Shown: piece by piece, positions 16,358 through 22,958 of the stretch
Numbering within the stretch: the first letter of the stretch is position 1
How the letters are laid out: each line of letters opens with the position of its first letter
Notes under the pieces: generated by a model
What the model saw: only the letters and a program-made list of their open reading frames with translations
What the model was told of the DNA's origin: nothing
Database searches by the model: none
Program-made: the position numbers and the translations under genes
Source: Curvularia clavata
Taxonomy: Eukaryota
Reading direction: 5' to 3'
Assembly (NCBI GenBank): GCA_023920165.1
Contig: CP089274.1
Coordinates: 248,001 to 312,000, forward strand
DNA length: 64,000 bases

Positions 16358-16822
16358 ATCGCCTATCGTAAATATCCCTTTGTTGGGAATAGCTACTATA
16401 CAGGTACTTACAACGATATCATTCTATGGTACTTTGCAGATACAGCTTTGCTCTTACAACTAGCTACAACACTATCTAGCCCTAATCTACTGGTAATAAT
16501 GCTATCCCTATATATCACATGCAAGAAAGTATAATCATAATTACCCTCAGCTGAGGCTGATTTTGTGACAAATATTTACATCAGCTAAGAGCTGTCATAG
16601 AGTCAACCAAAAGGCAACGCAGCTAGAGGAGCTGACGCCTTGATTAAGCGCAACTGTTAAGGTTTCAGCTGGCATGTTGTCATTCCGCGAGCTCCGGAAA
16701 TGTTGAGTTAAATATCGCCGAATTAGATTAGTGAGTTCTTGCAAGAGTCTTTGTTGATTAGTAACGGATATCGAAAACGCTTTGAATGATGGAATACTAT
16801 GCGCAGAACTTTGATGTACCGC
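16358..16822 (+). repeat. Left arm of diverged inverted repeat (caspase promoter, 5' UTR and first 12 codons)
   Basis: Aligns by eye to the reverse complement of 22904-23471. Shared blocks include ttaccctcagctgaggctga, gattaagcgcaact, cattccgcgagctccgg, tcgaaaacgcttt, atgatggaat and ttgatgtaccgc. Confidence 0.93.
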
Positions 16823-18792
16823 ACACCCCTCCTCTATCACCGAGCGGCGCAAAACGCGCGTTGTTAATCGGCAGCCCTACTGGAGGACTTTCCGGACCAG
16901 AAACAGATCTCGTTACTATAGAGCAGGTTCTACGACGCTACAGCTTCAGTTGTACAATCTGCTTTCTCGAGGGACGAAGCAAGTTTCCTGCAACCAGAAA
17001 TGGTATCTTTGCCGCTTGGGAGCAATTGCTGCAGCAAACGTCTCCTGGGGACGCTGTTGTGATATACTATTCTGGACATGGAGGTCTATTCGAGAAAGAC
17101 AAGAATGATGTCTCGAATAAACGTTGGCGCCTGCAGTTCATTGTACCATTGGACTTCGATCGGACAACACCAGGCGATTTTCGTGGTATTACTGATGTTG
17201 AGATCTCCAGTTTCTTGATGCAATTGACAAAGCGCACTGATAACGTTACCGTCATTCTCGACTGTTGCCACTCGGCAAACATGGCACGAGGTCCTACGCG
17301 CGCGAAAGCACTTCTTCCTCGTGACTATCCAGAGGTCTGGCGCCATATTCAAGCAATGCTCCACCAAAAAACGATCGGCACAGATTTTTTCCTAGAAGGA
17401 AATCCCAATGTCGTCCGATTCGTGGGTGCGACGGCCTCTGGAAGCGCGTATGAAAAGACATTTTCCAATGGTAGGTGCATGGGCGCCTTCACTGAAGCCA
17501 TAACAGAAGCTTTGGAACTGGCACTTCATACAGCACCTTATACCCAATTATCATGGAGACGTATATTGGACCATGTCCGGGATCGAATGTCTCGCACGCT
17601 TCCAGAACAATACGTTGACGTTGAAGGCCCTGCCAAGCGATTTTGTTTCACCACTAGCCTTGAGACTCAATCCGAATCGCTTCCAATATCTATGGTACGG
17701 GGAGGCGTCGACTTGGTTCTCGCTGGAGGATGGCTTCATGGTGTTTCGAACGGAGACAGATATGCCATCCTGCCTTACAATGAATATAAGCCTACTTCAG
17801 CAAAACGGATCGCCACAGCGAAAGTCAGGCGTGTGGGTGTATCATATTCGGAAGTCTCTGTAGAATGGGAGCACCGCTTCAATGCTTTGCCAGAAGGCGC
17901 ACACGCAATACTCTGTGGCAAGGCCTTAAACCGTCTTCCGATTGCTGTTCACGGCGATGGCCAACTCCAGAAAGCGATGGTGTCACACATCGATCAATCG
18001 AAATATCTTCGAAACGCAGAGCCTAGCGAGCAGATTTCCAGCCTTGCCATCGTCAGAAAAGAGAATTCCAATATCGAGATGAAAACTTCAGTAGGCATTC
18101 TCCGCAGATGGGCAGTTGAGAGCGCAGATGAGTTACAACAGGCCGTTGAAAAGTCGATGACAGTGCTCACGAATCTCGCCAAAGCACAACATCTTCTCAC
18201 GTTGAAGAGCCGAATACCCTGGAACCACGGTCTCAAGGTCGAGTATGGCTTTGTCGATGGTGGAGTGCGCAGGCCCTTGACCGACCCAAATTACGTTCTC
18301 AGTGTTGGTCAACGCATATATATCTCTACGCGAAATACGAGCAGAGCCACAGTCTTCGTTTGGATCTTTGAACTCCTTGCTGACAATGTGGTTTTGTTAT
18401 CCAACTTGACCCCCAGCGGAAGAGAGATTCCTGCTGGTGGTCATTATAAATTCGGGGAAGTTGACCTCACCGACAAGCTGATTGGCTCAGAGTTACTTTG
18501 GCCCAATCATGTACCGGCGGACCAAGAGATTCATGTGAATGAGGTGGTGGTAGTCACCGACAGGATGATTGATCTTCACTGTCTCGAGACAGACTCAACC
18601 CTCCGTGAGCATCCTAAGCATCGTGAGCGCATTGAAACAGAGTTGGAAGATATCGTTGAACAGATTGGACATGGAGGCGTTCGTACGTGGCAAGAGAGTG
18701 AAGAGAGCTACAAGCCCTTAAAATTTGACGTTATGGGATTGTCCTATAAGTTGACACCAAGGGAGCGACATCAAAACACTAAGGACGGATGA
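16786..18792 (+). CDS. Caspase-like cysteine protease (peptidase C14/metacaspase-type domain) with long C-terminal extension, intronless, 668 aa
   Basis: KRALLIG first strand, ATRNGI, VVIYYSGHG (His98) and VILDCCHS (Cys161) catalytic dyad, AYE...GAFTEA p10-like motifs. C-terminal beta-rich domain (VGQRIYISTRNTSRATVFVWIFEL). Confidence 0.92.
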   Translation: MMEYYAQNFDVPHTPPLSPSGAKRALLIGSPTGGLSGPETDLVTIEQVLRRYSFSCTICFLEGRSKFPATRNGIFAAWEQLLQQTSPGDAVVIYYSGHGGLFEKDKNDVSNKRWRLQFIVPLDFDRTTPGDFRGITDVEISSFLMQLTKRTDNVTVILDCCHSANMARGPTRAKALLPRDYPEVWRHIQAMLHQKTIGTDFFLEGNPNVVRFVGATASGSAYEKTFSNGRCMGAFTEAITEALELALHTAPYTQLSWRRILDHVRDRMSRTLPEQYVDVEGPAKRFCFTTSLETQSESLPISMVRGGVDLVLAGGWLHGVSNGDRYAILPYNEYKPTSAKRIATAKVRRVGVSYSEVSVEWEHRFNALPEGAHAILCGKALNRLPIAVHGDGQLQKAMVSHIDQSKYLRNAEPSEQISSLAIVRKENSNIEMKTSVGILRRWAVESADELQQAVEKSMTVLTNLAKAQHLLTLKSRIPWNHGLKVEYGFVDGGVRRPLTDPNYVLSVGQRIYISTRNTSRATVFVWIFELLADNVVLLSNLTPSGREIPAGGHYKFGEVDLTDKLIGSELLWPNHVPADQEIHVNEVVVVTDRMIDLHCLETDSTLREHPKHRERIETELEDIVEQIGHGGVRTWQESEESYKPLKFDVMGLSYKLTPRERHQNTKDG

Positions 18793-22000: not shown

Positions 22001-22958
22001 AGATATCTTGTGCTTTCTCGTAATGTCTCTTGGCTAAGGTAATATTGCCCTTTCCACCACCCATGAAATGCAAGGTTTCTTCATCTCTTGCCTGCGCATT
22101 GCTCTCGGTACCTCGCTCAAGGACCGTATCCCATGTCTCTGGGGTACCATACGATGTGCAATGATCATCTCCAAGTCTCATCTCTACATGAGCCGCTAGT
22201 GCCGAATGATTCTGAGTTTTTTCCTGGGCAACATGTAGACTTGACTCAAATTTAGATCGGTTCCCTGTGATTCGGTATGTCCAGGCAAGCTCAATCAGCA
22301 TTCCCACGAATAGATCGCCTCCAATGCCCATTGCATGTAGATTCGAAATCATAGCTTCGACCTCCGGAAGACCTACTTGCGTTGAAAGCGCAAGATTCTC
22401 AGATGTTGGTGTCACTGGTCGTGCAGAGACCATTTTCTGTTGAAATGTGATGATGGCATCTATCCAGTTGTACCGAGGATCGTAGCCCGCATACCGCTTA
22501 GTTTCCGTGATGTCTTGAAGCATGGGAGGTATACGCTTCAAGTAATCGAAAATCTTCGACAGTTCTTCCGATATCATGCTGCTTCCATTGGGCGCCCATG
22601 TGTATTGCATTGTCCTACAGTGAACTGTATATGACAATGCCAGAGCTCTGAGTGTGGGGAAGCGGTTCTTGGCCCTTTCTGCAGCTTCCGATAGATAATA
22701 TACAGCAGCGACTAGTTCGCCCTGGAGCATGCAAATACCACCCAGGTCGAGCAATGCGCGAACGAGAGCGGCGTTATTTGGGTGTGCACGAGCCTGAATC
22801 AAGGCATGTTCACATTCGGCTCGATGGTCGAGAAAACCATCTGGAAACCGCCCAAGAAGAGGGAAGTGCCCCAACAGTCCTTCGTTGAAGGGGATGGTGT
22901 CAGGCGGTACATCAAGGTTCTGTGTGCGGAATTCCATCATGGAAAGCGTTTTCGACAT
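19017..22958 (-). CDS. TPR-CHAT domain cysteine protease, intronless, 1313 aa
   Basis: Helical TPR-like N-terminal ~850 aa, then LERGKARSLLDL, LHLVPFHSL, VSYLPSAS, LHFGTHG (His1162), LVVLSACNTG (Cys1203), SLWPVDD, FWAPFILIG. This is the canonical CHAT motif series. Confidence 0.95.
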   Translation of the reverse strand: MSKTLSMMEFRTQNLDVPPDTIPFNEGLLGHFPLLGRFPDGFLDHRAECEHALIQARAHPNNAALVRALLDLGGICMLQGELVAAVYYLSEAAERAKNRFPTLRALALSYTVHCRTMQYTWAPNGSSMISEELSKIFDYLKRIPPMLQDITETKRYAGYDPRYNWIDAIITFQQKMVSARPVTPTSENLALSTQVGLPEVEAMISNLHAMGIGGDLFVGMLIELAWTYRITGNRSKFESSLHVAQEKTQNHSALAAHVEMRLGDDHCTSYGTPETWDTVLERGTESNAQARDEETLHFMGGGKGNITLAKRHYEKAQDIFQTLGILRGIAGIQLRLGYIATLGTSHNHLPGDPYRNALEYIAFAEDLYRSCGDYIGTQIACAHRCLCRIGIGQEPEDTKLARSIGVWGRENGSYSFAFGLGLFFAKYARRWLVALGDYERAVATHRLAEALFDGLDATLPRLFSITDQMTVYESLGERDRFVVIAERALDICAEVLKSQEGPTADKVSNHRVQILSRMFLQAQKHADPDEIFRAATRLKEARVFIEGDGKSGTASSSGDLIAEYLGMAMKSLQEIIREDAEQPCASSQAPDVEELLKKMNSLDINPLEFQTKCTTTMIDHMSSLAEFLVPFYRGRRASREGDQKTAETLWEVARASLEENPNEQKDVLLTSLYTDMKMYDKALAHTKAYLAKCLAEHQALPEGKTREDRVLMNRGLWQSKNQVLGMFTRTRHFKEADSFLKEIQHEWGRDWWKVYEERVWENLSLAGQINVGLQNYETACNYYEQAMQAFEERRDQLSIDDYKIALAGDSNVQEIYFGATLSAIKWHFSLERTGTAEVLSPQLQRAFENLERGKARSLLDLIGGNALLAKSSAPQSHNQWSEYKQQTALLTTRRALLASAYSSENRSDPLYIAQLKEDVATREQQLWDIAKSLSESGQPRSAPVTATKVFNLPEICSSLTEDTAILQYSYQRNDLIAWMITVRGMTEVYHIEVPEAELERNVHAYHRACGRLMSDVGHYASWLGKTLLPFRSLREHTRLIIVAYRTLHLVPFHSLPWEQELLISTHSVSYLPSASLLKYLGKWKKLKPSFSVLAVGDPSNMVYKDPFKGIKECMRSLPSSALEASQIAKTVPRSTALVSNAATSEAVYSQMNNHSVLHFGTHGSLFAKIPMLSAIHLAGGTQITVDQLMGRELKAELVVLSACNTGRGRITDGEDVVGFARALLAAGVKHVVVSLWPVDDDATCYLMEQFYKNLMQRMSVAEALRAACTALQDVKKEELEAYLRERVHPEVKRIIVRDCSQPKFWAPFILIGA

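Follow-up and report, generated by a model that had tools for sequence, protein, structure and literature searches.

The DNA analysed here, called the window throughout, is a 64,000-nucleotide stretch of the Curvularia clavata genome (assembly GCA_023920165.1, contig CP089274.1, positions 248,001 to 312,000), and coordinates given without a contig name are positions within it. It contains two large neighbouring genes, one for a caspase-like protease and one for a protease of the CHAT family. An earlier note, made from the letters alone, had described these genes as intronless, convergent and 224 bp apart, and had proposed that they form a two-protease cascade of cell death or defence. The layout is as follows, ORF standing for open reading frame and aa for amino acids:

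16786..18792, + strand: caspase-like protease gene, an uninterrupted ORF of 668 aa, PCaspase-type family
18793..19016, no strand: spacer of 224 bp between both stop codons, convergent 3' ends
19017..22958, - strand: sensor-CHAT protease gene, an uninterrupted ORF of 1313 aa with a Pfam CHAT domain and with fungal and bacterial full-length homologues

This layout was borne out by the ORF list, in which both frames converge with 224 bp between their stop codons, and by the available gene models, which are 100% identical over 667 aa (caspase) and 1306 aa (CHAT) and thus contain no introns. Contigs from four sequencing runs that were aligned to the stretch have no joints inside either gene, save one low-depth contig of a metagenome-size run. 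Contigs of two runs guessed to be RNA (X5 and X6) cover both genes, one of 2293 nt spanning 16660-18946, which does not by itself prove transcription. The elements of the caspase gene are:

16852..17598, + strand: caspase/metacaspase-fold protease domain, residues 23-271, by Pfam Peptidase_C14
17077-17079, 17260-17262 and 17266-17268, + strand: catalytic residues H98, D159 and C161, respectively, by alignment, codons checked
17269..17307, + strand: loop after the catalytic Cys, HSANMARGPTRAK, predicted disordered, with conserved R168 and K174; candidate activation-cleavage region
17638..18789, + strand: conserved C-terminal extension, residues 285-668 (384 aa), by alignment, profile search and model

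The protease domain was identified as Peptidase_C14 (PF00656) over residues 23-271 with an E-value of 2.8e-13 and 50.5 bits against a cut-off of 21.4, and the AlphaFold model, with a mean predicted local distance difference test (pLDDT) of 79.5, adopts the caspase/metacaspase fold. A Foldseek search with this model returned metacaspase 9 (E 5.2e-14) and the caspase domain of MALT1 (TMt 0.73). Among solved relatives metacaspases are the nearest, weakly so, with yeast Yca1 matching residues 69-188 at E 5.7e-06. The dyad H98/C161 had been predicted to be intact and is invariant in 15/15 aligned family members; C161 and D159 are invariant in 139/139. D159 stands two residues before C161 and aligns with the Asp of the DSCHSG motif in the yeast metacaspase. 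For the cleavage of this protein two arginines in the loop behind C161, R168 and R172, had been put forward. The former withstands comparison, since position 168 is basic in 136 of the 139 members (132 R, 4 K), the latter does not, being R in 36 of the 139 only. Position 174 is basic (K or R) in 121 of them. Residues 162-168 of the model, directly behind the catalytic Cys, have a pLDDT below 50. The stretch ahead of the protease domain is some 22 residues long and not rich in Pro or Gln, so that the prodomain of type I metacaspases (Mca1/Yca1) is missing, as had been noticed.

In most of the best 120 caspase homologues the match covers ~86-100% of the query sequence. Many Pezizomycotina are represented (Fusarium, Colletotrichum, Aspergillus, Penicillium and others), as are, at ~30-33% identity, Actinomycetota and Myxococcota such as Dactylosporangium and Archangium; set against type I metacaspases, the nearest relatives are bacterial 'caspase family proteins'. 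Judged by these alignments the entire 668-aa architecture, protease plus extension, is one distinct family of Pezizomycotina and Actinomycetota/Myxococcota. The protein was also considered for NCBIfam caspase_w_EACC1 and is not a member (38 bits, cut-off 140), and PADLOC offered the generic 'caspase' and 'TPR' models only.

The C-terminal extension, estimated at ~370 aa in the earlier note, measures ~384 aa and is itself conserved: a search with its profile yields 4081 representative proteins with E <= 0.001, of which 621 have E <= 1e-30, and in most of the 150 matches listed the match starts near residue 250-280, behind a caspase domain. Folded alone it reaches a pLDDT of 83.4 and consists of a small beta-barrel, an alpha/beta domain and an Ig-like beta-sandwich. 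Fold comparison by Foldseek and VIA-align gave generic beta-barrel, anticodon-binding-like and Ig-like matches, all with Z < 8, and among these generic matches no catalytic, enzyme or pore-forming fold was recognised, by which such a fold is not excluded. An Atlas lead points from the extension to a DUF4384 cluster at 0.94. In some family members caspase and extension are followed by NACHT (P0486) or by TPR repeats (P0423), and to go by this domain order the caspase-extension module may serve there as the N-terminal effector of a protein resembling receptors of the nucleotide-binding, leucine-rich-repeat kind (NLRs).

The CHAT gene divides into two parts:

19020..19904, - strand: CHAT protease domain, residues 1019-1313, by Pfam; H1162 at 19473-19475 and C1203 at 19350-19352, codons checked
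19905..22958, - strand: N-terminal region of ~1000 aa, presumably helical repeat, putative sensor or regulator, by BLAST, hidden Markov model (HMM), identity profile and between-run differences

The CHAT domain (PF12770) matches residues 1019-1313 with E 6e-55 and 187.2 bits against a cut-off of 24. Its dyad H1162/C1203, also called intact before, is invariant in 16/16 and 10/10 aligned CHAT proteins. No NTPase family (NACHT, NB-ARC) was found by Pfam in the 1313-aa protein, which is thus neither an NLR nor a STAND protein by its domains. Full-length relatives at 40-86% identity are fungal or environmental, those named being from Pseudogymnoascus, Ilyonectria, Fusarium and Colletotrichum; the full-length homologues of Fusarium oxysporum (P0244, P0245) bear N-terminal ankyrin repeats. 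According to the identity profile, residues 451-600 and 1-300 of the CHAT protein and the extension of the caspase are the most variable parts among related proteins, and both protease domains the least variable. Between contigs of runs labelled as the same organism the stretch 21482-22936, which codes for the CHAT N-terminus, differs by 7-9%, versus 1.4-3.3% for most other pieces of the pair (up to 4.6%). This divergence could result from relaxed or diversifying selection on the putative sensor.

In order to learn how regularly the two genes occur together, loci were fetched by the caspase alone, 79 from bacterial genomes and 79 from metagenomes, and all their ORFs were scanned with a CHAT-domain HMM. 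A CHAT ORF separate from the caspase ORF was found in 60 of the 79 bacterial genome loci and in 28 of the 79 metagenome loci, many of the metagenome contigs being only a few kb long; no single ORF in the fetched loci was matched by both HMMs. Where at least 5 kb was available on both sides (59 bacterial loci), a CHAT ORF lies within 5 kb of the caspase in 47 loci and within 600 bp in 32, and at a distance of 5-10 kb, which serves as internal control, only 6 of the 59 loci have a CHAT ORF. The recurrent adjacency that the earlier note had proposed to look for is thus present in bacteria. In the 58 adjacent cases the CHAT gene lies upstream on the same strand 39 times, downstream on the same strand 11 times and on the opposite strand eight times. 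Pfam confirmed the C-terminal CHAT domain in 18/18 sampled bacterial neighbours, most of which have 850-1000 N-terminal residues that belong to no Pfam family; by Pfam some of them have clear TPRs and the majority none.

The N-terminal parts are related as well. Residues 309-1312 of the window's CHAT protein align by BLAST with the bacterial neighbour in locus L113 (27% identity, E 2e-63), and an HMM of the fungal N-terminal region matches the CHAT neighbour in 25 loci besides the metagenome contig L080 described below, mostly at positions ~295-980. These residues are homologous to caspase-adjacent CHAT proteins of Actinomycetota, and the extra ~290 N-terminal residues of the fungal protein are shared solely with its nearest bacterial relatives. 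Given this homology and that of the caspase family, the fungal and the bacterial module are homologous in both of their genes. The front ends of the CHAT partners vary, comprising the long and presumably helical region, clear TPRs, SAVED, SIR2 (a cluster in 9 loci) and, in Fusarium, ankyrin repeats, and the caspase remains constant; this is the pattern of a variable sensor-protease that acts on a fixed effector. Taken together, gene neighbourhoods and alignments support well that the two genes form a conserved functional pair whose adjacency is not due to chance.

Other genes also recur beside the bacterial caspases, namely a SIR2-CHAT fusion (9 loci), a Ser/Thr kinase-TPR protein (13 loci), an AAA_16-TPR-LuxR regulator (14 loci) and an alpha/beta hydrolase (11 loci). 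Exemplars of recurrent neighbours, obtained by neighbour clustering, are:

L132:3202-4749
L132:4846-7740
L043:12506-15508
L117:8413-9987

A second case in the fungal clade is metagenome contig L080, where a CHAT protein that is 40% identical to the window's over its full length stands head-to-head with a 679-aa caspase, an orientation that differs from the convergent one of the window. Both L080 proteins fall inside the fungal groups of the FastTree phylogenies of caspase and CHAT proteins. In the caspase tree 30 P entries (fungal or unassigned) and five metagenome entries form one group with support 94, which is not starred, and the window caspase belongs to a starred subclade of 13 entries with L080, Cladobotryum, Truncatella, Fusarium and Colletotrichum. 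In the CHAT tree 16 fungal-type entries form a starred clade whose nearest relatives are bacterial and include Vicinamibacterales and Amycolatopsis; in locus L083 a relative of this nearest bacterial group again follows a caspase. Another organism has both genes on one 97-kb contig, which covers the pair completely at ~94% identity and whose net in-frame indels keep both frames. Moreover, the members of three further caspase/CHAT pairs (P0003/P0122, P0004/P0123 and P0006/P0370) lie on equally long contigs of 29656, 6128 and 9226 bp, which suggests, and does not prove, that the two members of each pair share a contig. Contig L080 holds a second, tandem caspase paralogue as well (L080:8808-11822, P0029), of 1004 aa, with an N-terminal addition of ~300 aa that has a weak gag-like match (E 7e-4).

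A further tie between the window's two genes is found at their 5' ends, which form an inverted repeat, located by repeat search, MAFFT and blastn:

16358..16822, + strand: left arm, ~430 bp upstream of the caspase ATG plus the first ~12 codons
22904..23471, - strand: right arm, ~510 bp upstream of the CHAT ATG plus the first ~18 codons

The 5' regions of both genes (~0.45-0.55 kb) are mutual copies in inverted orientation with 77-80% identity (78% by MAFFT), and the longest block identical in both arms contains a perfect 12-nt palindrome with a CAGCTG core. By blastn there are just two copies within the window and none in the fetched loci. For this reason, and since the arms enter both coding regions, the candidate explanation that they are transposon ends was set aside as less probable on the 64 kb covered. 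Because the repeat arms include the first 12-18 codons, both proteins begin with the same motif, MME-aromatic-x-x-QN-F/L-DVP. In a ~80% relative the two proteins agree at 17 of their first 18 positions. Part of this shared N-terminus is kept in more distant CHAT proteins and is absent from more distant caspases; hence it seems, from these comparisons, that the caspase gene acquired a copy of the promoter and start of the CHAT gene. The copied stretch upstream of the caspase (16771-16791) reads SKTL-stop-MM, with the stop just before the ATG. A relative's caspase starts six codons earlier (MPKTLSMM...), codons that the window's caspase lost to the stop. Placed behind copies of one 5' region, both genes are probably switched on together, and the duplication may well reflect selection for co-expression.

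An informative comparison is that to the CRISPR locus of type III-B in Haliangium ochraceum, where the CHAT domain of a SAVED-CHAT protein cleaves and activates a prokaryotic caspase, PCaspase, which then cuts many proteins and halts growth with a strong abortive phenotype, as far as the available text of the preprint by Steens et al. describes it (bioRxiv 10.1101/2023.06.23.546230). The same text gives the operon order as SAVED-CHAT, sigma-70 factor, small ORF, kinase-TPR and caspase, and the PCaspase dyad as H79/C146. We searched for SAVED in 101 genomes of the order to which one of our myxobacterial loci belongs and fetched eight regions, two of which (L193 and L191) have this gene order as checked by Pfam. 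Their caspases match the HMM of the window family at positions 7-639 and 8-585 of 642, respectively, with E ~2e-87. By BLAST the L193 caspase is 30% identical to the window caspase over residues 22-345 (E 6e-36), and its His-to-Cys spacing of 67 equals that of the published H79/C146. On this sequence evidence the window caspase is in the same full-length family as the caspases of SAVED-CHAT operons, L193 and L191 being tied to the system of Steens et al. by gene order. According to the parts of a second preprint that were available, PCaspase is one of the protease-associated effector modules with the highest abundance in prokaryotes (bioRxiv 10.1101/2025.11.14.688446), and a further preprint, likewise available in part, describes it as cleaving possibly after Arg.

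Since the caspases of SAVED-CHAT operons match the family over its full length, the best reading of the window is a sensor-CHAT to PCaspase-type cascade: this fungus and filamentous bacteria would have in common a cascade of two protease genes, with CHAT as the activator of an executioner of the PCaspase type. We give this reading a probability of about 0.55. The 1313-aa protein would be a latent initiator, whose long and probably helical-repeat N-terminal region keeps the C-terminal CHAT domain inactive until a cue arrives. The 668-aa protein would be a PCaspase-type zymogen, consisting of a metacaspase-fold protease with the acidic S1 residue D159 and of three non-catalytic domains behind it. 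Once activated, the CHAT domain would cut the neighbouring caspase, most likely at or close to R168/K174 in the disordered loop that follows the catalytic Cys, or else between protease and extension. The freed caspase would cleave many cellular proteins after Arg or Lys, and growth arrest or death of the hyphal compartment may follow, in a context of defence or non-self recognition. Through the shared 5' regions both genes would be induced together. Direction of cleavage, site, trigger and outcome are all inferred. When caspase and CHAT domain were modelled together as a complex, the score was 0.00, a 'no answer' that is evidence neither way. A bolder claim is that a genuine cascade of caspase-fold proteases, from initiator to executioner, exists in filamentous fungi. 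It would have come from filamentous bacteria as an intact module of two genes, by inheritance or transfer, and have been rewired behind copies of one promoter in the lineage of the window, and in it CHAT would cut a zymogen that destroys the proteome; this we advance tentatively, at slightly less than an even chance.

The pair is situated among rhodanese, short-chain dehydrogenase and HET-domain genes, and farther away Pfam identifies housekeeping genes such as Cdc23/APC8 and polyprenyl synthetase. The region is therefore an ordinary part of the chromosome of an ascomycete-type fungus. One HET-domain (heterokaryon incompatibility) gene at 25170-27140 (+ strand, 656 aa, Pfam E 3.7e-30) is 2.2 kb from the start of the CHAT gene and may or may not be part of the pair's system. 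Among the Pfam matches of the ORFs scanned between ~9.8 and 34 kb, taken in sets of 5, 16 and two, there was no gasdermin family, although a small intron-split gene could escape such a scan. Long ORFs that belong to no Pfam family at E <= 1e-4 were seen at 30634-33954 (- strand, 1106 aa), 50073-52553 (+ strand, 826 aa) and 27790-29088 (+ strand, 432 aa).

Several observations weigh against the proposed cascade. The fungal members are known from sequence alone. Linkage in fungi, which the earlier note had likewise suggested to search for, is a mixed result: the pair is kept in the fungal-clade contig L080, but in F. oxysporum BFJ69 the nearest caspase (g8784, on a 191-kb contig) and the nearest CHAT (g14566, on a 54-kb contig) are unlinked, and three fungal-clade contigs contain no CHAT, namely L084, whose caspase has ~9 kb of flank on either side, and the two short contigs L085 and L087. 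In bacteria 12 of the 59 full-flank loci have no CHAT ORF within 5 kb. The TPR region announced in the earlier note, which was to act as the sensor, is a weak assignment, as the single TPR_12 match in the CHAT protein has 18.5 bits and thus stays below the cut-off of 30.1. Fusions of family members to NACHT or TPRs imply that for some of these caspases activation may not depend on a CHAT partner. As for the conserved Arg, it might just as well serve the autoprocessing or the structure of an Arg/Lys-specific protease, and the available text of Steens et al. does not state the cleavage sites of PCaspase.

Some of these points return in a different wiring of a functional pair, in which the caspase processes or activates CHAT, or both are activated in parallel on other substrates, or the extension docks on CHAT as a regulator. 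Conserved adjacency speaks for coupling and is silent on direction; the conserved R168 and K174 would fit the caspase's own predicted Arg/Lys specificity, as in autoprocessing; and the kinase-TPR, LuxR-type ATPase and alpha/beta hydrolase neighbours could be the real substrates. Against it speaks the only relative that has been characterised, where the caspase is cut and activated by CHAT, according to the accessible part of 10.1101/2023.06.23.546230, and the variable sensor parts sit on the CHAT gene whereas the caspase is constant. On balance we regard another wiring as unlikely, though not negligibly so.

The purpose of the pair might also be allorecognition, i.e. heterokaryon incompatibility, rather than antimicrobial or antiviral defence, which would be compatible with the cascade as a mechanism. 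The proximity of the HET-domain gene is in line with this, as is the 7-9% difference between same-organism contigs in the CHAT N-terminus, and in Aspergillus fumigatus a 1327-aa CHAT protein is described as a hetB allele in the available text of PMC11138114. However, no presence/absence or idiomorph pattern was seen, as the aligned runs cover both genes, the pair sits among housekeeping genes, and no Aspergillus protein was among the CHAT homologue matches, which makes this purpose rather improbable. Least of all do we favour that the genes are neighbours by chance, with a housekeeping metacaspase of proteostasis or stress and a CHAT protein that acts elsewhere, for instance on an unlinked gasdermin. 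The unlinked F. oxysporum homologues would agree with it, and fungal CHAT proteases are known to act on gasdermins, as the literature seen in part reports. Adjacency that recurs in two bacterial phyla and on a second fungal-clade contig, a caspase that has the family-specific extension in place of a type I prodomain, the duplicated 5' region common to both genes and the lack of a gasdermin family among the scanned neighbouring ORFs together render it very improbable.

The cascade, if it holds, would be new to fungi in its form. In the accessible parts of the reviews, regulated cell death of fungi is attributed to pore formers (HeLo/HELL, gasdermins) under the control of NLRs or of S8/CHAT proteases; fungal CHAT proteases appear with gasdermins or as hetB only, and fungal caspase homologues as type I metacaspases of disputed role only. 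We found no fungal CHAT/caspase pair in the literature on fungal cell death so far as it is openly accessible, subscription papers and preprint supplements, which may list eukaryotic PCaspases, being outside this scope. The statement of the earlier note that no fungal system of this form had been described can therefore be kept for fungi; the kind itself is known, its prokaryotic counterpart having been characterised once, and the pair is the eukaryotic counterpart of that module. A conserved CHAT-caspase module would add a second tier to fungal cell death, a protease that activates a protease, a logic so far documented in animals and in one bacterial CRISPR-linked system. It would amount to a eukaryotic death pathway that has no gasdermin, HeLo or NLR component, and to a living link between bacterial and eukaryotic protease cascades. 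Since Streptomyces-like and myxobacterial genomes contain the module too, it bears on how the death machinery of eukaryotes relates to bacterial defence. In the duplicated promoter one would see, as is rarely possible, that selection has favoured the joint expression of two unlinked transcription units. With two intronless genes and four obvious point mutants the system is also compact and testable.

Among known fungal systems, the pair resembles hetB of A. fumigatus in having a CHAT protein of similar length, compared by description only. One hetB allele is the 1327-aa protein mentioned above, which genetics connects with the death of cells when hyphae fuse (Auxier et al. 2024, PMC11138114); the available text of that paper mentions no caspase partner. 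With type I metacaspases (Yca1/Mca1; PDB 4f6o) the window caspase shares the caspase-haemoglobinase fold, the His/Cys dyad and the Asp two residues before the Cys; unlike these, it has no Pro/Gln-rich prodomain and has a 384-aa family-specific extension. Closer in organisation are the HET-Q2-like two-gene clusters of TPR-CHAT and gasdermin in fungi (Clave et al. 2022, PMC8851545). There too, according to the text available, a fungal multidomain CHAT protease stands beside its presumed substrate, an executor of cell death, and the ancestry is likewise bacterial. The neighbour of the window's CHAT gene encodes a caspase-like protease instead of a gasdermin, which would make the pair a relay of two proteases and not a pair of protease and pore.

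In Craspase, which consists of Cas7-11 and the TPR-CHAT protein Csx29, a repeat-bearing CHAT protease stays inactive until a signal arrives and then makes a specific cut in Csx30, encoded next to it. The window pair is alike in that a CHAT protein with a presumed repeat region lies beside a neighbour-encoded putative substrate, and unlike in that it has no RNA-guided partner, an unrelated putative substrate family and a TPR match below threshold. As in the SAVED-CHAT/PCaspase system of H. ochraceum, CHAT and a caspase-like protease are encoded together; however, in the window a presumably helical region of ~1000 aa takes the place of SAVED as the putative sensor, the pair has neither a cyclic-nucleotide source nor CRISPR, a sigma factor, an inhibitor or a kinase next to it, its genes converge with no other gene in between, and its host is eukaryotic. 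Finally, the pairs of long-N-terminus CHAT and PCaspase-family proteins in Actinomycetota and Myxococcota are counted as 'PCaspase', and not characterised, in the available text of bioRxiv 10.1101/2025.11.14.688446. They are mostly co-directional with CHAT first (39/58), whereas the fungal genes have separate, duplicated promoters, but they possess the same two-gene architecture, and both of their proteins are homologous to those of the window.

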